A stretch of 64,000 bases of DNA from a virus. Its lineage: Duplodnaviria; Heunggongvirae; Uroviricota; Caudoviricetes. Below, one piece after another: positions 10,583-64,000 of this stretch (positions within the stretch are counted from its first letter, which is position 1; each line of letters starts with the position of its first letter). The notes beneath the pieces were generated by a model. The model was not told where the DNA came from. It worked only from the letters and a program-made list of their open reading frames with translations, and ran no database searches. Location of the stretch: the IMG/VR virus record IMGVR_UViG_3300022661_000054. The stretch is one strand, 5' to 3'. A program made the position numbers and the translations under genes.

Positions 10583-11272
10583 TTACTTAGACGTTTTCTC
10601 AAGCTTGCTCCAGTTATACCAACCATAGAAAGCATTTGCAGTCCAAGCAATATACATTGCAACCATAGACCACTGACCGAGAATAATAAACATAACCAAA
10701 CTAACTACGTCAATAAGAATCCAACAAGCCCACTGTTCTCTGTATCGCCAAACCATAAGAAGCTGAGCAATAACAGCAAGAGCCACAGTCATAGCATCAA
10801 GATAAGGAAGAGTACTACCAAGAACAGCTTCACCAAAATAACCGAGTAGGAAGGTACTAAGTGCAACTACTGCTGCAGAAACCAGCCACTGCCAAAGCTT
10901 AAACTTTTTAGCTTTTACCTGTTTAGTACCATCTTCATTCTCAATCATATTCTTCTTCCACATAAAGACGCCGAAAATACAAACAATGAAGTAGAATACC
11001 TGTTCACCAAATTCGAGATATAATGCGAGGTCCCAACAGATAATCATATATGTAATCATCTGAAGGAAGTTAAAGAAGTATGAAGAAATCTTTCCTTTTG
11101 CCGTCAGAGCTACACAAATAACACCAGCAAGTCCGCAGACAATTCCAATAGCCGAGTCAGGCACAATAAAATACATAATCACCTGAAGTAATACCAAGGA
11201 AGCGAAAAAGATTTTTTCAAACGTATTATAACCGTTCCAAAATTCATTCTTAAGCCATTTTACCATTTTCAA
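10583..11272 (-). CDS. pnuC: Nicotinamide riboside transporter PnuC
   Basis: Multi-TM protein with AKGKISSY, PYLDA, AQLLM..RYREQW..W and YGWYNW PnuC motifs; adjacent to nadR. Confidence 0.9.
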   Translation of the reverse strand: MKMVKWLKNEFWNGYNTFEKIFFASLVLLQVIMYFIVPDSAIGIVCGLAGVICVALTAKGKISSYFFNFLQMITYMIICWDLALYLEFGEQVFYFIVCIFGVFMWKKNMIENEDGTKQVKAKKFKLWQWLVSAAVVALSTFLLGYFGEAVLGSTLPYLDAMTVALAVIAQLLMVWRYREQWACWILIDVVSLVMFIILGQWSMVAMYIAWTANAFYGWYNWSKLEKTSK

Positions 11273-12356
11273 TAATCTCCTTTACATCATCAACAATTCT
11301 TTTAAAATTATTATAATAACCACCGTCAAGGATAGTTACTTTATCCCAATTACCAGAAGCTTTTATATTATTACACAAAATTTTAAAAAGCTCCATTCTC
11401 TCATCTGTTCCACTAAATGCCATATATCTAGTATGGTCGTCTACAAATACACCGTGTGGACAAAGAAGGTAAATTCTATCCCACTTACATTTCTTAGTAA
11501 TAGCATCTGCTGCAACAGCAATTTCTTCGAATTCTTCTTCAGTCAAATCAAGTTGAGGGTCTTTGCAGTAGTACTCAGCATACATACGAGTTGTCATACT
11601 ATCAGAGTCTGCAAAGAAGATACCCTGATTGCTGGGGGAGTTAATCAGTTTCTTATTCATCTGATATTGACCGTCAAGAAAAGCCATGTAGTCAGCACCA
11701 TCAAGTTCCCACTCAGAAATATAGCTTTCTTCCATATAATCTCTGGCATACTCATGAGAATACGGAGCGTTGAAATACTTACCGAGGTCTTTTACTAAGG
11801 TTGTCTTTCCTTCACTTGCTGTCCCGCAGATAAGAATATTCGTACTAAACACTCTTCTGAACGGGAAAGTAATCTTATCCCAATGCTTAATGGGATTCTG
11901 TCGAATCATTGTAGCAGAAATAGGATTAAGTGTTCTATCAATCTGTACAACTTCATATCCTGCACTATCAAGATATACAAAGTATTCAGGTTCACTAACA
12001 TAGAATACTGATCTACCCTCAGCTCCAAATGAAAAGATTCTTTCAATTTCAGCTAGTACACCATTCCAACCGTTAGGGTAAGCTTCGATGCCGAGCTCAG
12101 TTTCGTCAATAGGATATACAGCGACTAAATCATCATCTGCAAAGAATTCTCTTACATACCTATAACGTAACTTTAGTGGCATTTCTTTTCCGCCTCTGTC
12201 ACCATCTCTACCGTCAACCAAGACAATGCAACCACCGTCACATTCTTTCTTAGCTCTCATAATTAAATCAAGATGGCCTTGATGAAGCGGTGCGAAGGTT
12301 CCGAATACTACACCGATTTTTTCGCCTTTCAGTTTTTTCTGATACGTGTAAATCAT
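11250..12356 (-). CDS. nadR: Bifunctional NMN adenylyltransferase / ribosylnicotinamide kinase (NadR without HTH)
   Basis: GTFAPLHQGH (HxGH), ISATMIR, Walker A GTASEGKTT, EYARDY. Confidence 0.9.
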   Translation of the reverse strand: MIYTYQKKLKGEKIGVVFGTFAPLHQGHLDLIMRAKKECDGGCIVLVDGRDGDRGGKEMPLKLRYRYVREFFADDDLVAVYPIDETELGIEAYPNGWNGVLAEIERIFSFGAEGRSVFYVSEPEYFVYLDSAGYEVVQIDRTLNPISATMIRQNPIKHWDKITFPFRRVFSTNILICGTASEGKTTLVKDLGKYFNAPYSHEYARDYMEESYISEWELDGADYMAFLDGQYQMNKKLINSPSNQGIFFADSDSMTTRMYAEYYCKDPQLDLTEEEFEEIAVAADAITKKCKWDRIYLLCPHGVFVDDHTRYMAFSGTDERMELFKILCNNIKASGNWDKVTILDGGYYNNFKRIVDDVKEIIENGKMA

Positions 12357-49505: not shown

Positions 49506-49517
49506 TAATTTAGCAAA
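49506..49517 (-). promoter_or_regulatory. Putative late promoter TTTGCTAAATTA
   Basis: Motif copy. Confidence 0.7.
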
Positions 49518-49543
49518 TTAAAATGTTAACCATGTTTCATTTG

Positions 49544-51397
49544 CTAATCAATACTAATAATACCTCTACATTTTGGAAATGTGGAGCACCCATAAAACAA
49601 CTTTCCGAATCTGCTTCGTCTAACTATCATTGGCTCACCACAATTTGGACAAGTTTTTTCAGGCATCTCTGGTGCTATGCCAGTTTCATTAGTATCTTTA
49701 ATAACTCCTTGTAAATTTTTATAGAAGATTTCCATATAGTCCAGCATAGCAACTTTACCAGCTGCAATTTTGTCTAACCGTTCTTCCATTTCTTTTGTAT
49801 AGTTTACATTAACCAACGTTGGGAAAGATCGATCACAATAATCTGCTAGTTGAAGGCCTCTGTCGGTTGGAACTATGTGTTTTTCTTCCAGTTTGGCATA
49901 TCCGCGTGATGGACTTAGGATAGTTTCTACTATACTAGCATAAGTAGACGGTCTCCCAATCTCTCTCGCTTGAAGTTCTTTAACCAAACTTGCTTCTGTA
50001 AATCGTGCTTTTGGTTGAGTAAATTTTTGTATAGTTTCTAATTCAGTATCTTGTAATACTTCACCTACAATAAACGATTCTGGACAACCAAAAATTTGAT
50101 TATCTTCAAATTCATAAGCTGCTTTATATCCAGTATCCAATAACTCCTTAGAACTTAAACTAAACTTATGATCATTATTATTTATTGTATAAACAGTTTC
50201 TGCTATGGTAGCAGCAGGCATTACAGAAGCAATAGTACGTTGCCAAATTAATTTATATACTTTTGTAAGAAGTGGATTATTTATATGTGTGGACAGTATT
50301 TCAGGTGTCATATTAGGGTCTACCACCCTTAGCGCTTCGTGTCCGTCTTGGTCTGTAGACTTCTTTTTACTCTTTCTAGGACCAACGTATTTTTTACTAC
50401 CATAAGTGCTTTCTATAAAAGTTTTAAGTTCTGGTAAAAATTCAGCTGTAATCTCTGTTGAATCTGTCCTCATGTATGTAATTAGCCCGACGTGTTCTCC
50501 ATTTACTTTAATACCTTCAAAAAGTTTTTGAGCACAGCTCATTGCATCTTTAACTCTTAAACCAAGTCTGGTAGCAGCTTCTTGCTGAAAAGTTGCGGTA
50601 CAAAAAGGTTGTTTTGGAGATTCCTTGTGTTTAGTTGTTGCTGTATTTTCTACAGTATATAGAGAATTTTTACAATCAGCCACCACGGCGTCTACATCAG
50701 TCTGCTTATTAAATTTATTAATAATTTCTTGTTTATATCCGGAGTATTTTGCTTTAAATGCATTACCACATTTAGTAAAATTTAGATATAGGTTAAAATA
50801 TATTTCAGGAATAAATTCACTTATTTCCTTTTCGCGTTCTGATACTAGTTTAAGTCCGACAGACTGACAACGGCCCACCGACTTTGCACCAATATACTTT
50901 TTTACAATTGGTGAAAGCGAGTAGCCAATAAGTTTATCTGTCATTATTCTAGCTAATCCTGCATCTACTAAGTTATTATCAAAAGGCACAGGATTTTCTA
51001 TTGCACTGACAACAGCTTTTGGTGTAATTTCGTGCATTACAACCCTAAAAGTTTTTTCTATTGGTAAGTTGCAAAATTTTACTAGACTCCAAGAAATTAT
51101 TTCTCCTTCTCTATCATTGTCAGATGCAACATAAATTCTATCTACAGAAGTAGCTTTAGTAGCAATCTCATCTACTATTTTTTTCTTGTCGTCGGCAACA
51201 ACTAAATTCATATTAAAGTTCTTTTTTGGGTAAATGCCTGAGTTGTATGCGGGACCACCGTCTGCTAGCTTCATAATATGTCCAACTGAAGCCATCACTA
51301 CTGCTTTTGTATATCCAGCTCTCTTCAGAATTCCTGATATAGTTTTTAATTTATTTGGCGACTCAACAATTACTAATATTTTATCTGTTTTATTCAC
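49544..51397 (-). CDS. topA: DNA topoisomerase I (type IA)
   Basis: VESPNK, DNDREGE (TOPRIM), SVGRCQS, catalytic GLITYMRTDS, IGRPSTY, one C-terminal zinc ribbon. Confidence 0.95.
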   Translation of the reverse strand: MNKTDKILVIVESPNKLKTISGILKRAGYTKAVVMASVGHIMKLADGGPAYNSGIYPKKNFNMNLVVADDKKKIVDEIATKATSVDRIYVASDNDREGEIISWSLVKFCNLPIEKTFRVVMHEITPKAVVSAIENPVPFDNNLVDAGLARIMTDKLIGYSLSPIVKKYIGAKSVGRCQSVGLKLVSEREKEISEFIPEIYFNLYLNFTKCGNAFKAKYSGYKQEIINKFNKQTDVDAVVADCKNSLYTVENTATTKHKESPKQPFCTATFQQEAATRLGLRVKDAMSCAQKLFEGIKVNGEHVGLITYMRTDSTEITAEFLPELKTFIESTYGSKKYVGPRKSKKKSTDQDGHEALRVVDPNMTPEILSTHINNPLLTKVYKLIWQRTIASVMPAATIAETVYTINNNDHKFSLSSKELLDTGYKAAYEFEDNQIFGCPESFIVGEVLQDTELETIQKFTQPKARFTEASLVKELQAREIGRPSTYASIVETILSPSRGYAKLEEKHIVPTDRGLQLADYCDRSFPTLVNVNYTKEMEERLDKIAAGKVAMLDYMEIFYKNLQGVIKDTNETGIAPEMPEKTCPNCGEPMIVRRSRFGKLFYGCSTFPKCRGIISID

Positions 51398-51551
51398 CTG
51401 TATATTGCTCCTTGTCTAAAGACTGTTCTAAAGACTTTTCGAGCAATTGTCGAATTAAAGCAGAAATACTTAATGAGCGTTTAAAGGCTTCTACCCGCAA
51501 GGCTTCTCTCAGCTCATCAGATATTTCTAGGCTTATCATCTTTTTTGCCAT
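51390..51551 (-). CDS. 53-aa ribbon-helix-helix protein (absent from ORF track)
   Basis: MAKKMISLEISDELREALRVEAFKRSLSISALIRQLLE...; GGAGG RBS; overlaps topA start. Confidence 0.8.
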   Translation of the reverse strand: MAKKMISLEISDELREALRVEAFKRSLSISALIRQLLEKSLEQSLDKEQYTGE

Positions 51552-51562
51552 AAAAACCTCCA

Positions 51563-52351
51563 TTATTTATGTGATTTTTTCTTTAGACTTTTTACATAGT
51601 TATTAAAGTCTCTTTTTTGTGCTGCTTTTTCAGCACGATTCATTCCAATAATTGCTTTATTTGCTGCTTTTTTAGCTTTTGCTCTTTTAGCTGTCTCTTC
51701 CTCATTTTCGATAACAGCAATACGACCATTAATAACACTTTCAGTAAACTTTAGATGCTGAAAAGCTGTAGCTGCCTCCTCGTCTGCTTCAATAGCACTA
51801 TTTAAACTTGCTAACTTGCGCGGCAAAAAAGTATCTTTGTAGAAAGGAATGATTTCAGTTAAGTCCGAGTCTTCAATTTTACCGTCTTCTTCTATGTCAG
51901 ACACAAGGCCTAGCTCATTTGGCAGTACTCCATCTAAAATTTGTGCTTGCTGATCAAATAAACTTGCTGCAATGCCGATAAGTTTATTATCTTCATACTT
52001 AAAATCTTCATTATAATAAACTACTGTGATTTCTTCAGGTCTACCAATAACAATTTCTTTGCCTGGCATTGACGCACAAGTTTCAATAGTAATTTTTAAG
52101 CCTTTTTTCTTTGTAATAATTGGATTAATAAAGGTTTTAATTTGGTCATTAAAACGCAGACAAAAAATACGCTTATTAATTCCAATTTGTGGTGCTGAAA
52201 GAGCTAGTAAGCTATTATCATTTTCCATGACAGCTTTAATTTTAGCAATAATATCAGTGCCTTCTTCAGTTTTAGCACCTTCTTCTGTTAGAAAGGTAAG
52301 CGGTTCAGCAGGTTGTGCTAACTTTTCTAAGTCAAAAATAATTGTTTCCAT
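51563..52351 (-). CDS. def: Peptide deformylase homologue lacking HExxH (probably inactive)
   Basis: LSAPQIG, FINP, ETCAS; QHExDHLxG replaced by DQQAQILDG; basic C-terminal helix. Confidence 0.8.
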   Translation of the reverse strand: METIIFDLEKLAQPAEPLTFLTEEGAKTEEGTDIIAKIKAVMENDNSLLALSAPQIGINKRIFCLRFNDQIKTFINPIITKKKGLKITIETCASMPGKEIVIGRPEEITVVYYNEDFKYEDNKLIGIAASLFDQQAQILDGVLPNELGLVSDIEEDGKIEDSDLTEIIPFYKDTFLPRKLASLNSAIEADEEAATAFQHLKFTESVINGRIAVIENEEETAKRAKAKKAANKAIIGMNRAEKAAQKRDFNNYVKSLKKKSHK

Positions 52352-52396
52352 AAATGTTCTCGCTTTCTATATTAAATTTAGCCAATGCTACTTTAT

Positions 52397-52404
52397 ATTA
52401 TACA
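52397..52404 (-). promoter_or_regulatory. TGTATAAT element (late-like GGCTAAATTT nearby at 52374-52383)
   Basis: Recurrent element, next to an AAATTAAT tandem repeat. Confidence 0.5.
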
Positions 52405-52452
52405 ACAAATTAATAAATTAATAAATTAATAATTTTAAAAAAGACGAGTTTA

Positions 52453-52818
52453 TTACTCGTCTTTTTTACTTAAAGCTCTTAAAGCTGCTTTAAAATGTAT
52501 AAGTGCATCAGAATTCTCTTCTTTAACGGAGTCAATATCTGCACCGAGCTTTTGCAACTCTTCTAAAATTTGATTATGCTGTTTTACATAGCCTATTTTC
52601 TTGGATTCCCTGTTCGGCATATCGAGAAGATACATAATATAAGCCAATCTATGGTAATTTGCCTCAAGACTTGCTACAGTATCGGTTGCTTCTTGCATTT
52701 GTTCTTCTGTAATAAGACCTTCTTTAAGAGCTTCTTCAAAATCAGCTAAATTTTGTTTTTCTTCTAGATACTGCGAAAGCATAGTATAGAAGTAGTGTCT
52801 TACATCTTTTACTGCCAT
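52453..52818 (-). CDS. Hypothetical helical protein
   Basis: AAGGAG RBS. Confidence 0.7.
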   Translation of the reverse strand: MAVKDVRHYFYTMLSQYLEEKQNLADFEEALKEGLITEEQMQEATDTVASLEANYHRLAYIMYLLDMPNRESKKIGYVKQHNQILEELQKLGADIDSVKEENSDALIHFKAALRALSKKDE

Positions 52819-52830
52819 AATATATTCTCC

Positions 52831-53190
52831 TTAAACATTTTCAAACCACTGCTGGATTGGCGGAAAATCTTTCCATGCCTCATAGTCAGTAATTTCTTCT
52901 ACTGTTTTAATGTCTTTTTTAAAGTCATTAATAAATTTATCAATTTCTCTACATATAACCGGCTCTTTGTAGTCTATCTTTTTATAGCTCACTGAAAAAT
53001 CATTTAATAATGTTTCAAGATCAGGGCAGATAGGACCGAATTTTAATATAGAGGTCTTTCCAAGGACGGTTTTAATTATAATATAATAATTATCTAATTG
53101 ATTATTTGTGCATCGCAGAGCAGTATTACCGATATCAACAACGTCAATAGATTCATTAAATGTTCTTTGTACTGAAAATTCAAAAATCAT
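52831..53190 (-). CDS. Hypothetical protein
   Basis: Operon packing. Confidence 0.7.
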   Translation of the reverse strand: MIFEFSVQRTFNESIDVVDIGNTALRCTNNQLDNYYIIIKTVLGKTSILKFGPICPDLETLLNDFSVSYKKIDYKEPVICREIDKFINDFKKDIKTVEEITDYEAWKDFPPIQQWFENV

Positions 53191-53197
53191 TTAGAAC

Positions 53198-53497
53198 TTA
53201 CACGCCTCCGATTTTTAAATAATATTCATCTTTATCGAAATCGGCGATTAAGAATAGTAGATACTTATTGTTATCTTCTTCTAACTCAAAATAGTTAGTT
53301 ACCTTAACCGTAGAATTACTGGTATTAGTGCCAAATGTAGGAAATTCAGTATTAATTGCATTTTTACTTAATTTTGTATAAATTTTAGCATACTCATCAC
53401 TATTTTCAAATTCAATTTTATAGAAGTGATTATCGTAATTACCTGTTTGTTCTATTTCAAGTCGATCCAAAATTCTTTGTATATTATTGTCCGCCAT
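53198..53497 (-). CDS. Hypothetical protein
   Basis: Operon packing; GAGGA RBS-like site. Confidence 0.7.
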   Translation of the reverse strand: MADNNIQRILDRLEIEQTGNYDNHFYKIEFENSDEYAKIYTKLSKNAINTEFPTFGTNTSNSTVKVTNYFELEEDNNKYLLFLIADFDKDEYYLKIGGV

Positions 53498-54047
53498 CCT
53501 CGTTCTCCTCTATAATTTCTTCTGATTCTACTGCAACAGCTTCAATAGCCTGCTTTGCTGTTAAATTGTCAAGAAGATTCATTACTGCTGATTTAACACG
53601 TTCTCTAGAATCTCTGCTAAGGTTGCTGGGTGATCCACCAATGTTAACTTCATTTGTTTGGTTGTTTACTTGAATAAGAGGCATTTCACCTGCACCTGAC
53701 ACCTGCTTTTGTCCTCGCTCAATAAGATCCTGAACGACTTTCAGACCGTCAAACAGTTCTTTGTTTGAGATTTCATCTGGCCGTGCAGTAAATCTAGTAA
53801 GTGCTTGATCCGTTATAGCGTCTAAAAGGTCACTTAGTTTATTAACTCTAACCATTGTTTTCTTATTTTGATTAGCGTTGAATAAATAGGTTAGGTCTTT
53901 AGCTTTTTGCTCATCTGTTTCAGAAATAATTTGCTCGATTAAAGCTAAAGATTCTTCATTTAAATTAGGCACTGTTAAGTCTGTAACTGTGTCAGCATTT
54001 TCGTCAGTCACAGGCAAATTAGTAAAATCTTTAGTTTCATCAATCAT
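53484..54047 (-). CDS. Hypothetical protein, possible terminase small subunit
   Basis: Helical core followed by IQVNNQTNEVNIGG beta segment, as in gp16-type TerS. Confidence 0.35.
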   Translation of the reverse strand: MIDETKDFTNLPVTDENADTVTDLTVPNLNEESLALIEQIISETDEQKAKDLTYLFNANQNKKTMVRVNKLSDLLDAITDQALTRFTARPDEISNKELFDGLKVVQDLIERGQKQVSGAGEMPLIQVNNQTNEVNIGGSPSNLSRDSRERVKSAVMNLLDNLTAKQAIEAVAVESEEIIEENEDGGQ

Positions 54048-54049
54048 TA

Positions 54050-54379
54050 TTAAATTACCTCTTCACAAATAGCTAATAGTTTATCTGCAAAAGCCTGTTC
54101 AAGTGCTAATTCCAGTGGGTTAATATCAGAATTTAACGCAGATTTAATAGAAGCTTTAAGGTTCTTACCTGGCACAAATTTACACTGCATATCGAGTAGA
54201 TTTACACTAAGAGAGCCTATACCGATATTAACTACTACCTGCTCCTCTCCTCTACGCTTTGCATCATTGATAATGCTACCTATACTTAAGCATGCTTTTT
54301 CTACTAATTCATTTGATACTTTTGTAGGTAGTCTAAGCAGAGTACCTACATCATTAATAATACTTACTTGTGTTGCCAT
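54050..54379 (-). CDS. HU/IHF-like DNA-binding protein with truncated arms
   Basis: Two helices, GEEQVVVNIGIGSLSV, then KFVPGKNLK (cf. HU FKPGKALK); no RNPxTG arm. Confidence 0.6.
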   Translation of the reverse strand: MATQVSIINDVGTLLRLPTKVSNELVEKACLSIGSIINDAKRRGEEQVVVNIGIGSLSVNLLDMQCKFVPGKNLKASIKSALNSDINPLELALEQAFADKLLAICEEVI

Positions 54380-54381
54380 AA

Positions 54382-54615
54382 CTAAATTTCCTTTCCGTCA
54401 CTATCTACTCGTTTTAAAATTTTCATTGGGTCTTGACCGTTTAAGTTCCAGATACTTTTTAAAATATCTTTTACATATACTTCATATGACTTATCTAGCT
54501 TATACTGAATACAGTGTGCCATTATTTCAATAGGTTTATACTTATTAGTAAAAATATCACGTATAAAGGATACACGTGTTTCAAACGTTCTTGCATCTCT
54601 GTTAAACTTTGCCAT
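54382..54615 (-). CDS. Small hypothetical protein
   Basis: GAAAGGA RBS for the next gene lies inside; operon packing. Confidence 0.6.
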   Translation of the reverse strand: MAKFNRDARTFETRVSFIRDIFTNKYKPIEIMAHCIQYKLDKSYEVYVKDILKSIWNLNGQDPMKILKRVDSDGKEI

Positions 54616-55010
54616 TACTGTTTCTGAATTTGACTCCTATCAATATTATATTGTTTCATAATAGGCAGCAACTGTACATATAGTTCAGTTACTCTATCTT
54701 TTTCTTTTTTAGTAAGTTTACCTAGCTTATTCTGCGCCGCTGTAAAAGTTTCACCATCGATATTTATATATTGATACATTAGCAAAGCATTTGTTACTAC
54801 TGCCATTTCAGCTTCTGTCGGAAAGGTAACAGTTCTACCGGCAAAATATGTAAGCAGTCTAGTCATATTTGCGCCGTCTAATAAATAGCATAATTCACTG
54901 GTAACGGCATATTCAGGTATATCTTGTACTTTAAACAATATGAAAAGCATTAAAGAATAAATGTCTGATAAATGTAGTGAATTAAGATTTTTTTTAATAT
55001 TATTCTTCAT
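54615..55010 (-). CDS. Mor/C-family-like transcription regulator
   Basis: SELCYLLDGANMTRLLTYFAGRTVTFP resembles the Mor EL.G..L...FGG..YIP signature. Confidence 0.5.
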   Translation of the reverse strand: MKNNIKKNLNSLHLSDIYSLMLFILFKVQDIPEYAVTSELCYLLDGANMTRLLTYFAGRTVTFPTEAEMAVVTNALLMYQYINIDGETFTAAQNKLGKLTKKEKDRVTELYVQLLPIMKQYNIDRSQIQKQ

Positions 55011-55815
55011 TATATACTGCCTCCGTTGCGGATGATAAAATATTTTTTAAGTCTGCTTCACTAATATCAGATGTTTTATAGCAGTCCATAATTTCTAGTT
55101 TAATAGCCATAAAAAATTCTTTTAATAAAACTTTTGTGTAATTAGACATGCTCTTCGGTAGGTGCCATAGAATCACGCTCTGTGGGGTAGCATCTAATTT
55201 TTTCTTATTCTTTAAGATTTGAATACTGGTTAAGAGTATTGAAATCTTTAAATTTTGATATTCTGGTGTTGACTCGTTAAAAGGCGACTTTTGTAGAATT
55301 TTATCTAATAGATTACTACTTTTAGATAGAGCTTCGTAAAGATACTCTTTAAACTGCAAAGTCACTCCTGCACTCTCTCGTGCGCTACTCTTTAATTGTT
55401 CTTCATAGGCGAAGGCATCAAATTTCTTAGATACAAACTCTTCTTCAATAACTTCTCTAAAGCTCTCTCGTTGATACTCAATTTTCATTGGGTATAATAA
55501 AGCTTTAGTGTAATTCAGACACGACTTTATCGGTCTGATTAATTTACCTTTAATAGTTTTTCCTTGATTTATTTGGTTTTTGCGTAGTGCAAAAAATAAA
55601 CGATTTGCTGCATAAAAAGAGTACATATCATAGTCTTGAAAGTCTTTAAACATACACTTCTTAATAGCTAAGGCTTTTACTAGTAACCATAAATAATTAT
55701 AAATGGTATTTTCTAATTCAGGGTTTTCGCCTGGATTAACTATTTTTGGTACGTTTTCGTCAATATACATACAAAGCTCCGTATATCGAAGATTTGCAGG
55801 CTTTTTCCAAAGCAT
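55000..55815 (-). CDS. Candidate gp55-like late sigma factor
   Basis: Helical pattern IYNYLWLLVKALA..F..Y.....IKSCLNYTKALLY resembles sigma region 2; adjacent to the gp46/47-like pair. Confidence 0.4.
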   Translation of the reverse strand: MLWKKPANLRYTELCMYIDENVPKIVNPGENPELENTIYNYLWLLVKALAIKKCMFKDFQDYDMYSFYAANRLFFALRKNQINQGKTIKGKLIRPIKSCLNYTKALLYPMKIEYQRESFREVIEEEFVSKKFDAFAYEEQLKSSARESAGVTLQFKEYLYEALSKSSNLLDKILQKSPFNESTPEYQNLKISILLTSIQILKNKKKLDATPQSVILWHLPKSMSNYTKVLLKEFFMAIKLEIMDCYKTSDISEADLKNILSSATEAVYNEE

Positions 55816-55835
55816 TCTATAGTTACCTCATTTCT

Positions 55836-57698
55836 TTAGTATAGTTCGCTGATACCATGCTCATTTTTAATGACTCTGATCTCAGAGTCCACAGGAAGTT
55901 CAAGTTCCTCGGCATGATGTGAAATTATAAAAACAGATTCAACAGTTTGCAATTCTTTTTCAAGAAGCTGCATAACAGCCTGACAACTCTTTTTGTCTAA
56001 GAAGTCAGTAACCTCATCTAAGACTAAAATATTTGCACTTAAACCTAAATATGAGGTTAATAGATCTCTGATAGCTAATTGCAAAATTAAATCAACTCTC
56101 TGTTTTTCACCACCAGATAGCCCGTCAAAAAGCTTACCACAATAAGTGATATCTAAAGCGTTGCCATTTAAGCTTAGTGAAAGTTCTCTAGTACCAAAAA
56201 CAGTATTACAGTAATCTTTTGCTCGATTATCTATATAATTTATAATATTAGTTAATAAATACCCACGAAAATCTCTTCTGATTAGCTGGTCCATTTTCTT
56301 AACAATGGAAATACGCTGATCAAAGTCTTCTTTGGATAAGCTAGTTATGGCAATTAAATTAGTAAGACTGGCTACTTTAGCTTCTAACTGAGTAATGTTC
56401 TCTTGCTGCTTTTTAATATAACTATCCCAGTTTTGTTTATCATAAACAAGCTTATTATAAGTATTTTTTTCTAGTTCGAGATTAGCTAAACAGCTAGCTT
56501 GACTAGCTTTATTTAAACTTATATTTTGTCTAGTCTCTGCTATAGCTTTATTTACAAGAGCTAGTTCATCTTTAAAAGCGTTATCGATTTGTGTTATGTA
56601 CTCTTGATGCTGTGCATTACACTTTACGATATCATCATTGGTAGCGCTAAAAGCAGCTTGAGTGATAGCTAATCTAGCTTCCTGTTCACCTGTATCAGGT
56701 TTACTTACATTTGGAATATGTTGCCCGCAAGTAGGGCATGTATCTACAATAGCCTTAAGTTTTTTGATTTCTTCTGTTAAATTTGAGATTTCAAAACTTA
56801 ACCTGGTTTTTTCTTCAGAAAGTTTTGTATAAGAAGCAGTATAAGCAGAAAGTTCTTCTGTACTAACTTTAGCTTTTTCATCAGTGATTGATAGTAACTT
56901 TGTATTTAGCTCTTCAACCTGATTTTCTAGAGAGATAATTATGCTAGCATACTGATCTAGTTGATGTTGTATTTGAGCAATTTTAGTGGCCTGTTCTTCT
57001 ATTAACAAATCAAAATTAGGCTGTTGTCTGTTTGCAGTTTCTGTTCGCAAATGCTCAAGTGAAGCTAAATGACCATTTAATTGCGTTTTGTTTGTAAGTA
57101 AGCTATCTTCAAATTCTCTTATTTTGCTACTTAGTTCTTGTTGTCTAGCTACTATTCTAGCTTTTAAGTCTTCAATCATAAAATCTGACTTAGTAAGCTT
57201 TTCTAGTAAATCTTTTCTACCACTAGGACTAAATGAGGAGAATTTGTTTGGCATCCCCTGCCCGATAATAATAGTGGAAGCGATAAGATCTTTTGTTAAC
57301 TCAGGAATAAGCTCTTGTAGCTTTTTATCAGATTCACGAATACCTTTACCGCTTAGATCAATATCATTTTTAAATATTTTTAATTCTGATTTTGGAGTTA
57401 CACTACGATGTAAACTAAATAAATCTTTATTATATAAGAAGTCCAACTGCACCCAGCAGTCAGGTTCTTCAGTATTAATATTTTTTAAATTTGTTTTAAT
57501 ACCATTAATAGTTTCACCCGTCAAGGCATAACAGATAGCACCCCACAGAAAGCTTTTACCGGAACCGTTAGATAAGGCATTGTCTTTAATATAATTATTT
57601 TGTCCTGAAACTAGACAAAAACCTTTATTCTGCAATTCTAATTCAGCGTGGCCGTAGCTTCCAAAGTTATGCACTATTACTTTTTTAAATTGAATCAT
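55836..57698 (-). CDS. sbcC: SbcC/Rad50/gp46-like ABC ATPase
   Basis: NGSGKS, Q-loop GQG, CPTC zinc hook, LSGGEKQR, VLDE, ISH. Confidence 0.9.
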   Translation of the reverse strand: MIQFKKVIVHNFGSYGHAELELQNKGFCLVSGQNNYIKDNALSNGSGKSFLWGAICYALTGETINGIKTNLKNINTEEPDCWVQLDFLYNKDLFSLHRSVTPKSELKIFKNDIDLSGKGIRESDKKLQELIPELTKDLIASTIIIGQGMPNKFSSFSPSGRKDLLEKLTKSDFMIEDLKARIVARQQELSSKIREFEDSLLTNKTQLNGHLASLEHLRTETANRQQPNFDLLIEEQATKIAQIQHQLDQYASIIISLENQVEELNTKLLSITDEKAKVSTEELSAYTASYTKLSEEKTRLSFEISNLTEEIKKLKAIVDTCPTCGQHIPNVSKPDTGEQEARLAITQAAFSATNDDIVKCNAQHQEYITQIDNAFKDELALVNKAIAETRQNISLNKASQASCLANLELEKNTYNKLVYDKQNWDSYIKKQQENITQLEAKVASLTNLIAITSLSKEDFDQRISIVKKMDQLIRRDFRGYLLTNIINYIDNRAKDYCNTVFGTRELSLSLNGNALDITYCGKLFDGLSGGEKQRVDLILQLAIRDLLTSYLGLSANILVLDEVTDFLDKKSCQAVMQLLEKELQTVESVFIISHHAEELELPVDSEIRVIKNEHGISELY

Positions 57699-58011
57699 TA
57701 GGCTTCAACCACTCCTTCATATTTAACTTAATAAATTCACAAAAATTATTCCAATGAAATTCTTTTTTGTCTATATCTGTGCTTTTTTGATATGCTTCAA
57801 ATTCTGCTATCGTAGCAGCAAGCGTAGCAACATTTGTTTTTATCGGTTCTTCTAATTCTGCCTCAGAAGTAATTACTAGCGTATCTCTAATATATTTAAG
57901 ATATTCCACAAATAAAATTAAACCTGAATCTATTTTTGTAGGTAATTGTTTAATCAGATTGTTAAAGCTTTTTAAATAAGCTCTATTTAGATGTTTATTT
58001 GCTTTTTCCAT
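57685..58011 (-). CDS. Hypothetical protein
   Basis: GAGG RBS; TGTATAAT at 58047-58054. Confidence 0.65.
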   Translation of the reverse strand: MEKANKHLNRAYLKSFNNLIKQLPTKIDSGLILFVEYLKYIRDTLVITSEAELEEPIKTNVATLAATIAEFEAYQKSTDIDKKEFHWNNFCEFIKLNMKEWLKPNDSI

Positions 58012-58090
58012 ATGTTCTATAGAACCTCTTCCTAATTCCTAATAATATTATACAATAATTTTAAATAAGTAAGTATTTTGTAAAATGAGC

Positions 58091-59122
58091 TTATTTACAA
58101 ACTTCACCTAGCTCTTCGTCCAGCAAGGAAGAGTTTTCAATATTTGTTTTGCAGCATTCTATAAAACGAGCTAAATGATCAACTGATAGGTCTAATTCAA
58201 CAGTATTATCAGAATATGTTTCAAATTTTTTTACTAAGATAATTCTTGACTCAATAATAGTATCTTTTAATTCTGTTAAACGTTGCTTAACTTTTTCTAC
58301 TAAAACACTATCACATTTTATAGAAACTATTGCATTATTTTTTAAAGTACTCAGAAGCTTAATATCTTGTTCTGTATCAATTTGGATTTTATAAAAATTA
58401 TATGCATAAGGATTTTCAATGAATGTGAGCTGCAAAGTTTCAGTATCTAAAACAGCAATATTATGGCTATGCTTGAAAGCATCCTCACCAAAATCTTTAC
58501 CAGTTAAATTACCTAAATTGATTATTTTTTTAGAAACTGCCTGCCCATTATGAAGATGCCCGTTAACAAAAAGTGAGCAGTTAGCCTCAATCTCATCAAT
58601 AGAAAAACCAGTTCTTGACATAACAGGCCCAAGCTGAACACCACTAATATCATTATGTGAAAGTATGACAACCGGTCTATCTTCTTTTAGCTTGTAGAAA
58701 TATTCTTTTAGAGGTCGTCTGTCACACTCTACTACGTAAGGTAAAAAACAGATAAAACAGTCATCAAGAGGTAAAACAGAAGGTTCTGTCACGATTTTGT
58801 GTCTATCTCCTAAAAAACTATTTACAGAGTTAAACAACAAACTGCTTGTAGATGCGTCATGATTGCCTACGAGGCTATAATGCATTATATCTGACCAGTT
58901 AATTTCATTACAAGCAGTTATAGTTTCGCTTGCTAGGTCTGGTTTATCAAAAAAATCTCCTAAACTTATAATATAGTCACAGTTTAGCTCTTCCGCTTTT
59001 CGCTCCAGCCAATTTACAGAAGCAATACAATTTTCAAGTCTGCTCGGGTATTTTGTGCCCCATTTATTTATGATGCTCGCTCTAGGACACATGTGCAAAT
59101 CAGTAAAAAGTAAAATTTTCAT
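58091..59122 (-). CDS. sbcD: SbcD/Mre11/gp47-like metallophosphoesterase nuclease
   Basis: TDLH, LGDFFD, GNHD, SH, GHLH all intact. Confidence 0.9.
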   Translation of the reverse strand: MKILLFTDLHMCPRASIINKWGTKYPSRLENCIASVNWLERKAEELNCDYIISLGDFFDKPDLASETITACNEINWSDIMHYSLVGNHDASTSSLLFNSVNSFLGDRHKIVTEPSVLPLDDCFICFLPYVVECDRRPLKEYFYKLKEDRPVVILSHNDISGVQLGPVMSRTGFSIDEIEANCSLFVNGHLHNGQAVSKKIINLGNLTGKDFGEDAFKHSHNIAVLDTETLQLTFIENPYAYNFYKIQIDTEQDIKLLSTLKNNAIVSIKCDSVLVEKVKQRLTELKDTIIESRIILVKKFETYSDNTVELDLSVDHLARFIECCKTNIENSSLLDEELGEVCK

Positions 59123-59162
59123 TTAATCTTTCCTTTGTTATTTTTATCTACAACTACCTTAT

Positions 59163-59170
59163 ATTATACA
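59163..59170 (-). promoter_or_regulatory. TGTATAAT element upstream of sbcD
   Basis: Recurrent element. Confidence 0.55.
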
Positions 59171-59183
59171 GTATATAAAAAGT

Positions 59184-59209
59184 AAAAGCGGTCATAAAAA
59201 GACCGCTTT
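59184..59209 (-). terminator. Terminator
   Basis: aaagcggtc / gaccgcttt with T tract. Confidence 0.8.
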
Positions 59210-59215
59210 ATATAA

Positions 59216-59788
59216 TTAATTAATATAGTTAGCTGCCATTTCAGCCATTCTTGTTAGAGTAACTAAAGGATAAGCTCTACAAATATCATGAATATCCGGT
59301 GCAAAGTCGGTTGGGCGTGAGTGTATAATAGCTTCAATTTGCTCATCTGTTAGTGGTACCAGGTTTTTAATCTGCATATACGAACTAAAGCCTAAATCAC
59401 CATAAACAGGACGATTGGTACCTTCACGAGTTTTATATGCAGGAACCGCCTCCCATTGTCCGGTTTCTTCATTCTTTACGTTTTTCATATAAGCTTCATA
59501 CATAGTTGCTTTGTAGATATCTTTAAAAAACGCTACTTTAATAACATCTTCTTCAGAGTATCTGCCTGGGAAATAAGCATTACACAATACACCAAGTTCA
59601 TGAGCAGTTCTTAAAGCACGCTCACATAAACCGCCAGGATAAGCTCCGGTATACTGAGCCGAAGCAGGAGCATTAAAGTAATTGACTTGGTCAAGTAGCT
59701 TATTAATCTCTGTTAGATCAATATTTAGTTTAGAGAGCAACTCCACAAATCTAATTTCATTATTATTTTTTTGTTCTAGTGTTAACAT
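59216..59788 (-). CDS. HD-domain homologue with metal ligands replaced (probably inactive)
   Basis: YFNAPASAQYTGAYPGGLCERAL vs family APAS..HH.AY.GGL.EH; AFFKDIYK vs LLHDxxK. Confidence 0.7.
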   Translation of the reverse strand: MLTLEQKNNNEIRFVELLSKLNIDLTEINKLLDQVNYFNAPASAQYTGAYPGGLCERALRTAHELGVLCNAYFPGRYSEEDVIKVAFFKDIYKATMYEAYMKNVKNEETGQWEAVPAYKTREGTNRPVYGDLGFSSYMQIKNLVPLTDEQIEAIIHSRPTDFAPDIHDICRAYPLVTLTRMAEMAANYIN

Positions 59789-59800
59789 AAAACCCTCCGA

Positions 59801-60604
59801 TTAAAAATCTTTTAATACTTCTTCTATGATAAACTGACTCATTCTTTTTGTACTTTTACAAGCACAATTTCCAACGGCAAAACAGTTAGGTACAAGTAAT
59901 GACTGTCCTACGTTTGTAGTTTTAAGGTAGCCAGCCTCTTTTGATATGAACTTATCAGATACAAAGTCAGTTTCAGGTGTAGCAGCAGTTTTTATAAATA
60001 TGGCAGAACATGTTACGGTAGAATAATTGCTAAGCTCAACGTTACTAAGAAGGTCGTCCTGCAAAATGGCTTTTACAATCGTCGTATTCGGTAAAGCAAC
60101 AATGTTTTTTGTTTCAGTGAGTTTTTTAACGTTTGCAGGTGTAATATTTTCAATAGTAAGATTTTCAGTACATAAATAAACGTGCTTATATTTTTTTGCT
60201 ACAGCCAATGCAAATTTTACATCGCTATTGCTTTGCCCTACAACAATAGCAGGCTGATTTTTTGCCGCTTTAGGGATATCTAAGGTATTATTAAATACAC
60301 AAGGTACCTGTTTATTGTTAAGTACTAAAGGCTCATATTTGAGTCCTGACGCTATAATTAAGTGAGTGCAATATACACGGTCTCCATTTTTAAGATAACA
60401 ACCGAACAGTCTATTTTTATAGTCTGTAAAAATGACTTCTTCTTTAATATATTCCACATTTAAGAAGTCATGAGTAGTAGTACTTCTAAACTCACGACTA
60501 ATAAAAGCTATTTTAATAGTTGGCTTACCGTATGCAATCTTTTTTATAATATTATTGCCTTCAAGGCTATCGCCAATAATAACTATATCTACTTGGTAGT
60601 TCAT
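59801..60604 (-). CDS. Thioredoxin-reductase-like protein with degenerate FAD/NADPH motifs and no CxxC
   Basis: DIVIIGDSLEG, LIIASG, IVVGQSNSD, GYLKT, VPNCFAVGN colinear with TrxB. Confidence 0.7.
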   Translation of the reverse strand: MNYQVDIVIIGDSLEGNNIIKKIAYGKPTIKIAFISREFRSTTTHDFLNVEYIKEEVIFTDYKNRLFGCYLKNGDRVYCTHLIIASGLKYEPLVLNNKQVPCVFNNTLDIPKAAKNQPAIVVGQSNSDVKFALAVAKKYKHVYLCTENLTIENITPANVKKLTETKNIVALPNTTIVKAILQDDLLSNVELSNYSTVTCSAIFIKTAATPETDFVSDKFISKEAGYLKTTNVGQSLLVPNCFAVGNCACKSTKRMSQFIIEEVLKDF

Positions 60605-61569
60605 TTAGTCTCTCCTACAGAATTACTTAATTTTTGTTGTTTTAATTGACTAATACAGAGTTGTCTATCTACTGGTACAGATTCTAGATTTTGCCAAGTA
60701 ATAAGAGTATCTCGTACATTATCACCTGACTGTTGCCAAGTGCTAAAATATGGACAAACAGCATCCGGTCTTGTCTCTAAAATATCTGGATTTGTTAGAG
60801 GATTATATTCACACCAATGACATAGAGCTGTTACAGTAGGCTTAAAGTCTTCTTTCTGAATACCGCTAAAAAGCTTGTCTAAAACATCACGGCCTTCCCC
60901 AACAATATCGTCAGATAAAGCTCGCTGTCGAATATTACACAAAGGCAGATCATATTCACATTTAATTTTATTTAATGGGATATTCCACAGCTTTTCTGCT
61001 GCCATCATATAAACGGCAAACTGTAAAGGCGCTTTTAATTCGCTATTTTGTGCTTCTACAGCCCAAGTTTTAATATCTTGTATTAGTATTTCATTTGTTT
61101 CAGTATCTAAGAACGCACGGTCGATAGACCCATTAAAAGAGTGCACATTATCATAATTATATTCAAATTTTTGCTCAATACCTATAATTTTTAAATTAGG
61201 GTTTTCTTGCATAAATTTCTCAAGTCTATAAATAGCTGAGTCGAGATACAAATACATTTTTTCTTGATAAGTGCGTCCTGATTTATCCTTAGAGTAAAAT
61301 TCAGTTGGATATTTCAATGCAATCTTTCTGCATTCAATAATAAATTTATTTTTTAATTCTATATAATTAATACTCTGTCCGACTTGAAGTATTTTTGCAA
61401 TTTCTTCTTCTATGGAATGTACGAGTGACCCGAAGTCAGTCGCAATATTTGCATTAAAGATAAAATTTTTATCTAAATACTTTATCTTAAACTTGAATCG
61501 GCATTGCTTATAACAAGAGATTTTAGAGTAAGAGTATCTATCAAGAGTTTTAAGATTAATTTCCTGCAT
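60601..61569 (-). CDS. PD-(D/E)XK nuclease, Cas4/AddB-like with Fe-S cysteines
   Basis: SYSKI..Y.QC, GSLVH, GSIDR, DIKT, LQFAVY, CHWC..CP. Confidence 0.85.
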   Translation of the reverse strand: MQEINLKTLDRYSYSKISCYKQCRFKFKIKYLDKNFIFNANIATDFGSLVHSIEEEIAKILQVGQSINYIELKNKFIIECRKIALKYPTEFYSKDKSGRTYQEKMYLYLDSAIYRLEKFMQENPNLKIIGIEQKFEYNYDNVHSFNGSIDRAFLDTETNEILIQDIKTWAVEAQNSELKAPLQFAVYMMAAEKLWNIPLNKIKCEYDLPLCNIRQRALSDDIVGEGRDVLDKLFSGIQKEDFKPTVTALCHWCEYNPLTNPDILETRPDAVCPYFSTWQQSGDNVRDTLITWQNLESVPVDRQLCISQLKQQKLSNSVGETK

Positions 61570-61578
61570 TAGCCCTCC

Positions 61579-62514
61579 TTATAAAGTAATTTTATAAGCT
61601 AGATTATTAGCTAAGTAATTAAACATTTCACGCTTATCTAATTCAAGCTTAGACGTTTTTAATTTCAAATCAAAATTTGTTAAAAATTTTATTTTTTGTT
61701 TTATAGCCTCTATATTAAGACTACGATAATTATTCATTAGATGTTTATAATAACCAGCCGAAATTCCGCAGTTTTCAGCATTTAGCAGTGGATTTTGTGT
61801 AACAATAATAATGTTTTTTAATTTTGATAAAGCTCTATTAGCTAATACAACAGGCTCTAAGTCATTATAACCACTATATTTCAAGAATTCACGTAATACT
61901 AAAATATTACCATCAACTAAAGCATCCGCAACAGTAAATAAATCAGCCTTATAAAGATCTAGCTGTGGATCAAACCTGATAGAACTAAAAATAACTTTCT
62001 GCTCTTCTTTGCTGAATAAAGATACTTTATCAAGCTCGTTTAAAATACGTTCAATATTATTGTTTGTTGCCTTAATTAGCCACAAAAGGTCTTCTTCAGC
62101 TACACTTGGACAAAGCATTTTTGCATAGTCTAAAATTTGCCATTCTTCGAGCTCTGGAAACTTTATGATAAAACTTTCAACACTGTTAGCAATACTTTTA
62201 TCAACTTGGTCACATACTACAATAGTATTTTCAAACTGATTATAATTCTCAGCTCTTTCATCAAAAGTTTCTACTGTTAAAATATTAAGAGTTCCTTCTT
62301 GTGCTGTGAGTAATGCAAGGGACGATTGCTGAGGTTCATAAATACTACTTATTTTAGTAATACCGCCTTCAGCTAATTTACATAGTGCTTGCACGTACTG
62401 ACTTGCTAAAAAATTATTATCTTTACGAATAAAAATCATAAAGTCAGACGGTACGACATTATTAGTAACGCAGTCTTTAAGTTCTTTTAGAGTCATTACT
62501 GTACCGCCTCCCAT
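61579..62514 (-). CDS. holA: DNA polymerase III delta subunit-like (likely start ATG 62496)
   Basis: LLWLIKATNNNIERILNELDKV and DLFTVADALVDGN match delta; follows delta-prime. Confidence 0.7.
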   Translation of the reverse strand: MGGGTVMTLKELKDCVTNNVVPSDFMIFIRKDNNFLASQYVQALCKLAEGGITKISSIYEPQQSSLALLTAQEGTLNILTVETFDERAENYNQFENTIVVCDQVDKSIANSVESFIIKFPELEEWQILDYAKMLCPSVAEEDLLWLIKATNNNIERILNELDKVSLFSKEEQKVIFSSIRFDPQLDLYKADLFTVADALVDGNILVLREFLKYSGYNDLEPVVLANRALSKLKNIIIVTQNPLLNAENCGISAGYYKHLMNNYRSLNIEAIKQKIKFLTNFDLKLKTSKLELDKREMFNYLANNLAYKITL

Positions 62515-63290
62515 AAAGTAGTAAGATAGTTTAACATTAAGGCTTCTTTTAGTAAATTTTGCTGTGTAGCATACTGTTTAAACTTATTTGTTACATTAAA
62601 AATAATTAAGCTTTTAACATTATTATTGTTTTTAAAGTCCTCAAAAGCCAGATATTCAACCACATCAAAAAATAGATTAAAATCTATCTTATTATACAAG
62701 TCCTTGTAGTTTATTTTAGTAGAAATAACCAGAGTATTTGCGTAAGACGCACTAGATATATTATTAACAACATTTTTACCTAATGCAATAACTTCAGCAA
62801 AACTGCTTTCTGTCAAGTTTAGTAGTTTGCCAGGTGTTTTAAATATTTTAAATGCAAGGTCGTTAATATTTGCATTAGTAATCTGCTCAAGTTGTTCTTT
62901 TGTATAAGGTTCAAAACTATATTTTATGCATCTATTTAGTACAGTTGGAAGTACATTAACTTCAGAATTTGCAATTAAAATAATATAAACAGATTTAGAA
63001 GGTTCTTCTAGAGTTTTCAGAATAATGTTTTGCTGCTTCTCTGAAAATTTATTTAAATTGATAAGATAAAGAGTATCAATCGTCTTAAATAAAAACTCAT
63101 CTAAATCCGTGGATGCAGCTGTATCTTCAAGCTCCACAAAATCTAATTCAAATTTTTCAGCTACATGCTTTGCAACAGTATGCTTTCCACAACCTTGCGG
63201 ACCTACAAACATCAAAGTTTTAGGTAAAGTTTGTTTTGTATAAGAATCAATAATTGAGGTTAGTTTAGCTTGGCCAATAATACTAGTCAT
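62496..63290 (-). CDS. holB: DNA polymerase III delta-prime subunit-like
   Basis: IIGQ, GPQGCGK, NIILKTLEEP, LPTVLNRC. Confidence 0.8.
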   Translation of the reverse strand: MTSIIGQAKLTSIIDSYTKQTLPKTLMFVGPQGCGKHTVAKHVAEKFELDFVELEDTAASTDLDEFLFKTIDTLYLINLNKFSEKQQNIILKTLEEPSKSVYIILIANSEVNVLPTVLNRCIKYSFEPYTKEQLEQITNANINDLAFKIFKTPGKLLNLTESSFAEVIALGKNVVNNISSASYANTLVISTKINYKDLYNKIDFNLFFDVVEYLAFEDFKNNNNVKSLIIFNVTNKFKQYATQQNLLKEALMLNYLTTLWEAVQ

Positions 63291-63309
63291 AGATTAACAC
63301 CTCCTATTA

Positions 63310-64000
63310 TTAAATCTTACGACATATCTGAAGCATATAGGCCTCCACAACAGCCTTTACAGAAGTATCATATTTAATAGTATTTTTAGCTTCTAACAGC
63401 TTATCTGTTAAATAGTTAAACCAATCAAGGGCCCCTTCAAAAGAGGTCGTATAAGCAATATTTGTCATGCTATCGGCTGAGTTTTCTAGATAGGCAGGAA
63501 TATTTGTTAAAGCTATGTTTTTAAATAAAATATATTTTGTCAGCTCCAAAATAAAGCTTAAATATTCATTAACAAATTGTTTAAGGTCTTTACCTTCATT
63601 ATCTAACGTTTCAATAGCCGCAAGAGTGAATTGCTCATTTCCTCCAATAAGGCAGTTAGTTAACTTAAGCATTCGCTCAAAAGGCGCTTCACCAAGTACC
63701 AACTTAGTATTTTCCAGGCTAAGGTCGGTTGAAAGATCCGCGCACTGATCTAACTTTGTAATAGCTTCACGCATGCATCCGTTACAAAGTTTGCTAATTA
63801 GCTCACAAGTATCTTCATAGTTAGTGAAGCCTTCCTGTTGACAAATATAAGCTAATCGTGCTTTAATATCTTGAGAATTAATTTTTGCAACGTTAAAACG
63901 TTGCATTCTATTTTGAACAGTTGTAGGAATTTTATTAGGTTCTGTAGTGCAGAAAATAAAAATAGTATACTCAGGGCATTCTTCTAAGCACTTCAAAAAT
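63310..64000 (-). CDS. dnaX: DNA polymerase III gamma/tau subunit; 5' end beyond window
   Basis: FLKCLEECP, FIFCTTEPNKIPTTVQNR, GCMREAITKLDQ; frame open to the window edge. Confidence 0.85.
   Translation of the reverse strand, partial: FLKCLEECPEYTIFIFCTTEPNKIPTTVQNRMQRFNVAKINSQDIKARLAYICQQEGFTNYEDTCELISKLCNGCMREAITKLDQCADLSTDLSLENTKLVLGEAPFERMLKLTNCLIGGNEQFTLAAIETLDNEGKDLKQFVNEYLSFILELTKYILFKNIALTNIPAYLENSADSMTNIAYTTSFEGALDWFNYLTDKLLEAKNTIKYDTSVKAVVEAYMLQICRKI

Follow-up and report, generated by a model that had tools for sequence, protein, structure and literature searches.

The minus strand of positions 51563-60604 in a 64,000-nt stretch of viral DNA (IMG/VR record IMGVR_UViG_3300022661_000054; the whole stretch is called the window here) encodes relatives of a peptide deformylase (PDF), an HD-domain phosphohydrolase, and a thioredoxin reductase (TrxR), each of which has lost metal, redox, or cofactor residues of its family. 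The three proteins are probably separate non-catalytic descendants of a PDF, a YhaM-type HD phosphohydrolase, and a low-Mr TrxR, formerly active phage genes that have been kept under purifying selection and now act as binding or scaffold proteins with roles of their own. In the history that we propose, the sampled relatives would descend from a common ancestor in which the PDF and HD genes were already dead, the TrxR gene would have been inactivated later, and each gene would have been kept intact by purifying selection after the loss of its metal, redox, or cofactor residues.

Relatives were collected from a large protein database (1001 for the PDF-like, 787 for the HD-like, and 445 for the TrxR-like protein), and the residue counts given below refer to the 120 best-scoring relatives of each. 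Additionally, 13 IMG/VR loci were found to carry a PDF-like gene encoding a protein 51-76% identical to that of the window, with the gene order of the window, and more distant syntenic loci (L014-L027; L-numbers denote related phage loci) were added by a profile-based scan. The layout of the replication block was syntenic in relatives down to about 45% identity. The TrxR-like protein retrieved nothing when used alone as a locus query, and its orthologues were obtained by tblastn on the loci that had been fetched with the PDF-like query.

The PDF-like protein (262 aa, positions 51563-52351) consists of a PDF domain (residues 1-144) followed by a C-terminal extension (residues 145-262). It matched PF01327 over residues 11-143 (E 4.9e-21, 75.4 bits, cut-off 22.8), and its best sequence matches in the Protein Data Bank (PDB) included 3uwa (E 1.6e-10) and 5mtc (E 3.6e-6); on the TIGR00079 equivalog model it scored 47.1 bits, below the cut-off of 103.95. 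Motif 3 reads DQQAQI (residues 133-138, nt 51938-51955) where solved phage and bacterial PDFs read QHExDH. Motif 2 reads ETCAS (nt 52070-52084) in place of EGCLS, with the metal-binding Cys retained, and motif 1 reads LALSAPQ (nt 52187-52207; LLALSAPQ) in place of GxGxAAxQ, with the Gln retained and both Gly replaced. A previous interpretation of this DNA, made from the letters alone (hereafter the sequence-only reading), had stated that the protein lacks HExxH, and this was confirmed both for the window protein and for its relatives, none of which (0 of 120) has HExxH anywhere. Instead, the former motif 3 fits the pattern FDQ-x-x-x-[ILMV]-[LI]-DG in 119 of these relatives, one having no pattern match, and FDQQxQ occurs in 116. 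The motif-2 Cys was found in at least 98 of the 120, the rest falling outside the search pattern, and has been lost in L013-L015 and L017-L019. These results suggest that the fold and the framework of the cleft may have been largely kept, while the HExxH site would have been swapped for a near-invariant Gln-rich site and a strongly basic C-terminal tail would have been gained.

The extension of the PDF-like protein is specific to this family and has an acidic middle and a Lys/Arg-rich tail. An Atlas feature search with the extension gave no usable match, and a PDB profile search with it gave chance-level matches only (E >= 0.08). In every dead PDF examined (the window protein, its 120 best relatives, and the proteins of the 13 loci), the last 45 residues had a net charge of +5 to +13, whereas the matching residues carry -9 in L020 and -5 in L022, two PDFs that keep both metal-binding His. 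The loss of the metal site thus coincides with the gain of a basic tail, and the charge of this tail suggests a new role in binding RNA, ribosomes, or DNA.

The TrxR-like protein (low-Mr type, 267 aa, positions 59801-60604) matched PF07992 (E 9.2e-11, 42.1 bits, cut-off 26.1) as well as TIGR01292 (E 5.5e-16), but on the latter model it reached 58.2 bits against a cut-off of 343.45. It shares with TrxB (TIGR01292) a colinear two-Rossmann layout, and a canonical member of that family occupies the same gene slot in L019. Unlike TrxB, it has no CxxC, and its nucleotide-binding motifs are degenerate: the CxxC site aligns as FNNT (residues 104-107), the FAD motif GxGxxG reads GDSLEG (residues 11-16), the NADPH loop GxGxxA reads GQSNSD (residues 123-128), the C-terminal GD motif has become GN(C) (GNCA, residues 245-248), and no acidic residue is conserved at the end of beta-2. 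The missing CxxC and the broken glycine motifs had both been reported in the sequence-only reading, and both stand. Among the 120 best relatives, a CxxC of any kind was found in none, GDSxxG was invariant, and the NADPH loop occurred in 89 variants. The protein also lacks two segments that are present in the live L019 form and is about 35 residues shorter. It is the fastest-evolving member of the set, with a mean identity of 58% against 67-78% for TopA, SbcC, SbcD, the Cas4-like nuclease, and the PDF-like and HD-like proteins.

Two identities or partnerships were considered for the TrxR-like protein and rejected. TrxR-like ferredoxin-NADP reductases lack CxxC yet keep both nucleotide motifs, which the window protein does not. 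A partnership with thioredoxin or with a class I/II ribonucleotide reductase was discarded because complete relatives encode neither of them; the only ribonucleotide reductase is the class III anaerobic enzyme NrdD, which is encoded outside the window (G000:C1:86177-88030). From its sequence, the protein is best seen as a cofactor-less double-Rossmann scaffold or adaptor that would be dispensable in some lineages.

The HD-like protein (190 aa, positions 59216-59788) was not matched directly by any Pfam model or PDB sequence, and its homology was therefore established only through profile searches. It matched phrog_28876, 'metal-dependent phosphohydrolase' (E 6e-15), and an exhaustive profile search starting from it recovered 1429 relatives. 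When the window protein was aligned with 137 family representatives, the canonical H..H..HD..H..D pattern was seen in 66 of the 138 sequences, whereas the window protein has T47, R57, K89-D90, S157, and E183 at these positions. Some canonical family members pass PF01966 (e.g., P0402, 29.1 bits, cut-off 22), and among GenBank phages, homologues with an annotation as HD protein or metal-dependent phosphohydrolase occur in Streptococcus virus MS1 and Faecalibacterium phage FP_Epona. The 13 closest family representatives were all degenerate at the ligand positions, and KD replaces HD in 120 of the 120 best relatives. The claim that the His ligands are gone was thus upheld through the profile searches, with the nuance that the second His is kept in 67 of the 120 closest relatives; 52 have Tyr there, and the window protein has Arg.

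Compared with the phage replication-module HD phosphohydrolases (phrog_28876, which weakly resembles the YhaM HD domain), the HD-like protein has the same length and the same framework (APAS..Y, GGLxE, and a Lys after the HD position), but the ligand His and the terminal Asp have been replaced. HDOD is a known HD-like fold without catalysis; a live member of the HD family also matches HDOD, and the window protein itself is no HDOD member. Some live family members carry an additional ABC-type ATPase domain as a fusion or have about twice the length (P0437, 370 aa; P0411 and P0430, 435-439 aa), so the HD family has multi-domain forms. Judging from the residues that remain, the window protein may be a metal-free HD fold that binds nucleotides or nucleic acids.

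Live counterparts of the three proteins were identified in related phages. The PDFs of L022 and L025 are canonical (GLAAPQ, EGCLS, and QHELDH). That of L022 scored 105.3 bits on TIGR00079 (cut-off 103.95) and already bears a C-terminal extension homologous to that of the window protein; the L025 contig ends at the PDF domain. In the PDF of L020, motif 3 reads QHHIDH, with the catalytic Glu alone replaced, and the PDFs of L013-L019 are dead, some with the Cys and some without it. A canonical TrxR of 300 aa is encoded in L019 (GAGVAG, CAVC, GSGNTG, and GD; 237.6 bits on TIGR01292 over the full length), where it lies between the Cas4-like nuclease gene and the HD-like gene, as in the window, and is combined with a dead PDF and a dead HD protein. 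Dead TrxR-like forms with the deletions of the window protein were found in L014 and L016. The TrxR-like gene is absent in L013, which has a gene for ribosomal protein bS21 in its slot, and the TrxR-like and HD-like genes are both absent in L020. In L030, a live HD protein (P0381) adjoins the clamp loader and SbcCD. The live forms in L022 (PDF), L019 (TrxR), and L030 (HD) were already phage genes, which does not support the proposal in the sequence-only reading that the phage had repurposed host folds.

In a phage tree built from five neighbouring proteins and rooted on L020, the PDF was dead in 14 of 14 ingroup lineages, and the HD protein was dead in every ingroup lineage whose locus reaches the gene. 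Three independent inactivations at different times, followed by later losses of the TrxR-like gene, would be the simplest history for these distributions. The difference in the times of loss argues for separate repurposed proteins rather than for one new system.

The median ratio of nonsynonymous to synonymous substitution rates (dN/dS, pairwise NG86) was 0.09 for the PDF-like, 0.06 for the HD-like, and 0.14 for the TrxR-like genes, and 0.12 for TopA and 0.08 for each of SbcC, SbcD, and the Cas4-like nuclease among their neighbours, all these values being approximate because dS is saturated at about 2. Such low ratios indicate that the dead-enzyme genes are functional in some sense and are not pseudogenes. 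The view that these are pseudoenzymes and not decaying genes is therefore supported (dN/dS 0.06-0.14, intact ORFs), and in addition to dN/dS below 1 among orthologues, a conserved loss of catalytic residues was found in the 120 best relatives and across the clade. The neighbouring enzymes TopA, SbcCD, and the Cas4-like nuclease do have the intact active sites that had been described for them, and in related loci down to about 40% identity, the catalytic motifs did not vary in TopA, SbcD, SbcC, or the Cas4-like nuclease.

Several points weigh against three separate and non-catalytic proteins. The saturation of dS is one of them. The live-TrxR lineage L019 lies in a basal polytomy of the tree, and the basal branching of L019 and L014/L015 is not resolved; for this reason, the order of events rests partly on the deletions common to the dead TrxR-like proteins. 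AlphaFold2 (AF2), run on the full PDF-like protein with a 26-row alignment, gave a model with a mean predicted local distance difference test (pLDDT) score of 42.5, too poor for a reading of the cleft, and the idea of ribosome binding discussed below draws on charge and analogy only. The loss of canonical residues would leave a different chemistry possible, and the replacement residues QQxQ (PDF-like), GDS (TrxR-like), and KD (HD-like) are invariant and could mark a remodelled active site. Finally, the TrxR-like and HD-like genes are separated by 2-13 nt in 6 of the 7 relatives that have both (12 nt being typical), and this tight adjacency is compatible with a joint function.

The near-invariance of QQxQ, GDS, and KD speaks for a conserved site rather than free drift, and the proteins might accordingly still be enzymes with remodelled sites and new chemistry, for example a metal-independent or differently liganded hydrolase with a PDF fold, or a TrxR fold binding another dinucleotide. 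We regard this as unlikely. No ingroup member has either His or the Glu in its PDF-like protein, and L013-L015 and L017-L019 have lost the Cys as well. The TrxR-like protein retains none of its three FAD motifs in intact form, and its NADPH loop is not only degenerate but hypervariable. In the HD-like protein, four of the five ligand positions hold non-ligands, and the fifth, that of the second His, varies between His and Tyr and is Arg in the window.

The sequence-only reading had instead grouped the dead enzymes and an HU-like protein (described below) as one cluster and an undescribed system, whose members would function together as decoys, dominant-negative partners, ligand sponges, or replisome subunits. 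The genes concerned fall into a stretch of about 9 kb in a replication and recombination block that is syntenic to about 45% identity, and the short spacer between the TrxR-like and HD-like genes agrees with such a grouping. The evidence on history and layout makes this rather improbable: the genes were inactivated at different times, the TrxR being still live in L019, where the PDF and the HD protein are dead; the TrxR-like gene is missing from L013 and L020 and the HD-like gene from L020; the PDF-like gene belongs to a separate transcription unit with a ribbon-helix-helix (RHH) protein gene and TopA, about 7 kb from the TrxR-like/HD-like pair and with terminator-like hairpins in between; and live HD family members stand alone in many other phages.

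It is very improbable that the genes are decaying remnants that are open by chance or of recent origin. The TrxR-like gene, as the fastest-evolving of the set and one that has been lost in some lineages, would fit such a view, but dN is far below dS for all three genes. Their ORFs are full-length in hundreds of 90%-identity clusters and stay open at 29-55% identity in L013-L019, and a random 267-codon frame would be open with a probability of about 1e-9 (arithmetic from a GC content of about 32%). That the PDF, HD, and TrxR similarities are spurious or over-read is hardly credible, since the PDF-like and TrxR-like proteins match curated models (E 4.9e-21 and 5.5e-16) and the profile of the HD-like protein retrieves canonical HD proteins passing PF01966 as well as GenBank phage homologues annotated as HD, so the lack of direct Pfam or PDB sequence matches for the HD-like and HU-like proteins leaves doubt confined to the HU-like assignment.

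Taking the three proteins as separate non-catalytic descendants, we infer their present-day functions from the features that they have kept or gained. The PDF-like protein could be a non-catalytic binder of the ribosome, rRNA, or nascent chains, a role that we favour tentatively because of its basic tail, its near-invariant old active site, and the published finding that the C-terminal region of Escherichia coli PDF mediates ribosome binding (PMC5591237). A role as a DNA binder beside the coupled RHH-like protein and TopA is less likely. Complete relatives encode one PDF-family gene each, which is the dead one.

A more specific and more speculative possibility is that the dead deformylase, with its catalysis lost, its PDF scaffold retained, and a basic tail acquired, is a phage translation-takeover factor, which would attach to the exit site of the ribosome or to formyl-Met (fMet) nascent chains. 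Once bound, the dead PDF would block the host PDF and other exit-site factors, or it would read and protect fMet N-termini during infection. This idea takes up the dead PDF as the only PDF-family gene of the clade and the occurrence of ribosomal protein bS21 in clade relatives. Genes for bS21 were found in two related phages (L013, about 2650-2900, and G004:C1:18795-18938; PF01165 E 5e-12 and 1e-12), and bS21 (PF01165) had no significant match in G001 and G002, the two complete or near-complete relatives closest to the window.

Pseudoenzymes as such are already known, inactive PDF paralogues among them; what is new here is their phage context, the series from live to dead forms, and the acquisition of a basic tail. 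Inactive 'type 3' PDFs occur in some bacteria (PMC12690207). These paralogues, such as the second PDF of Staphylococcus aureus and of Streptococcus pneumoniae, are inactive or weakly active and have the fold, motif substitutions, and intact genes in common with the PDF-like protein (PMC12690207, PMC5591237). They are cellular paralogues that exist beside an active PDF, whereas the complete phage genomes have no PDF-family gene besides the dead copy. Moreover, the phage protein differs from them in that the whole HExxH has been replaced by a conserved Gln-rich motif and in that it bears an extension of about 115 aa with a basic tail. The PDFs of Vibrio phage Vp16 and cyanophage S-SSM7 (PDB 5mtc and 3uwa) are phage-encoded PDF folds like the window protein. 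The viral PDFs that have been characterised are active enzymes with short C-termini, and those of Vp16 and S-SSM7 combine perfect catalytic motifs and activity with very short C-termini (PMC5591237); judged by its motifs and its length, the window protein appears to be the opposite on all three counts. In a literature search, we found no description of dead phage deformylases or of TrxR- or HD-derived proteins of this kind.

The fourth protein that the sequence-only reading had placed in this group, as an HU homologue without its arms, was not confirmed as such. This conserved 109-aa protein (positions 54050-54379, minus strand; median dN/dS 0.11, under the same approximation as above) had no Pfam (E <= 1), PHROG, NCBIfam, or PDB sequence match. 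Likewise, a PDB profile search and a tblastn search of GenBank phages gave no match with it, and a six-frame search of five related phage records with PF00216 gave none at E <= 10. Its AF2 model was mediocre (pLDDT 63.6). HU chains were at the top of a Foldseek search with this model, at E 0.03-0.3 and 20-27% identity over about 70 residues, and VIA gave Z 4.5-4.9 to HU with a root-mean-square deviation of 3.2-3.5 over 69-70 residues; in an unbiased structure search, HU-type chains scored Z 3.8-4.3, below an unrelated top match at Z 6.2. Atlas features provided weak leads (0.80-0.83), some of them to viral clusters partly with PF00216. The model has the same helix-helix-sheet order as HU/IHF (PF00216), whereas the arm segment is seemingly missing and there is an extra C-terminal helix. 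An HU/IHF-like identity of this protein, as a fold candidate without the beta-arm, is therefore weakly supported.

Every gene across 46.9-64 kb of the window lies on the minus strand. In transcription order, the block is headed by clamp-loader genes (61579-63996), which encode delta-like and delta-prime-like proteins and the 3' part of a DnaX-like protein. They are followed by the gene for a Cas4-like PD-(D/E)XK nuclease (60601-61569), in which D..(D/E)xK, QxxxY, and the four Cys are all intact, and then by the TrxR-like and HD-like genes. The stop codon of the Cas4-like gene overlaps the start of the TrxR-like gene (ATGA), in the window genome only. This first unit ends at an intrinsic-terminator-like hairpin with a T-run (59185-59209), directly 3' of the HD-like stop codon. 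The second group (55836-59122) consists of SbcD (58091-59122), a small ORF (57685-58011), and SbcC (55836-57698), with intact nuclease and ATPase motifs, and is followed by seven small or medium conserved ORFs, including the HU-like candidate, and a terminator-like hairpin. The last unit comprises the PDF-like gene, the gene for a 57-aa candidate RHH DNA-binding protein (51390-51563), and the gene for the type IA topoisomerase TopA (49544-51397), whose Toprim Glu, DxD, and catalytic Tyr are intact. The RHH-like gene overlaps the PDF-like stop codon with its start and the TopA start with its end, an arrangement of translational coupling. The RHH pattern of a beta-strand and two helices was judged by eye, and the protein is 65-82% identical across related loci, including the distant ones.

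Other features of the block were observed as well. The most conserved gene is a 131-aa ORF (54615-55010, minus strand; 87% mean identity, dN/dS 0.02), which overlaps a conserved 271-aa ORF (55000-55815, minus strand); neither had a family match. In L014, an additional ORF (L014:1650-2287), whose product of about 200 aa has a zinc-finger-like motif rich in Cys, is inserted between the TrxR-like and HD-like genes. In-frame TGA codons were found inside otherwise intact conserved genes of L013 (L013:1746-12898; TopA, SbcD, the Cas4-like gene, and the 271-aa ORF), which points to a putative recoding of TGA in this phage, the most distant of the close relatives; the genes of the window read cleanly with table 11.

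With regard to transcription signals, a hairpin (GACGAG..CTCGTC) with a T-run lies at 52420-52470 on the minus strand, 3' of a 121-aa ORF, and was not listed by a consensus scan. An AT-rich stretch with TATAAT upstream of the PDF-like gene suggests that this gene may have its own transcription start. The element GCTAAATTA occurred 13 times exactly at window positions 1084-49514 on the minus strand, always on the coding strand, against 2.3 occurrences expected by chance, and had no exact copy in the replication block (49515-64000). This distribution fits a putative late-promoter element that would exclude the pseudoenzyme genes. A late-promoter-like near-match upstream of the PDF-like gene was dropped, as one-mismatch matches to GCTAAATTA occur at chance frequency.

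The virus record that holds the window is 96 kb long, with an estimated completeness of 43%, and the window has a GC content of about 32%. The phage has structural genes for a portal protein, a prohead protease, a major head protein, and a tail sheath. A 220-kb contig carries an identical TrxR-like protein, and related IMG/VR contigs are 220-237 kb long, one of them with direct terminal repeats. On these grounds, the source of the window is taken to be a tailed jumbo phage of about 220 kb, from gut or rumen, that belongs to an abundant metagenomic clade. Among GenBank phages, we found neither DNA near-identical to the window nor a match of the TrxR-like protein, and the only matches of the PDF-like protein were to two Listeria phage fragments that lack annotation, at 31% identity. 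A gene for nicotinamide-nucleotide adenylyltransferase was identified at 11250-12356 of the window (minus strand; phrog_3462, E 8e-68), which fits the 'NAD-jumbo phages' described previously (PMC11662467).

Pseudoenzymes have been much studied in eukaryotes and are sparsely charted in phages. The phage lineage described here offers three natural live-to-dead enzyme series, in which the live forms survive in relatives, and such matched live and dead orthologues make directly testable what a phage gains from a dead enzyme. The deformylase case contradicts the published view of viral PDFs as active enzymes with short C-termini, and it could reveal a new phage action on ribosomes or nascent chains. 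Additionally, hundreds of metagenomic copies of these genes are labelled 'peptide deformylase' or 'thioredoxin reductase', which would lead surveys of auxiliary metabolic genes astray.

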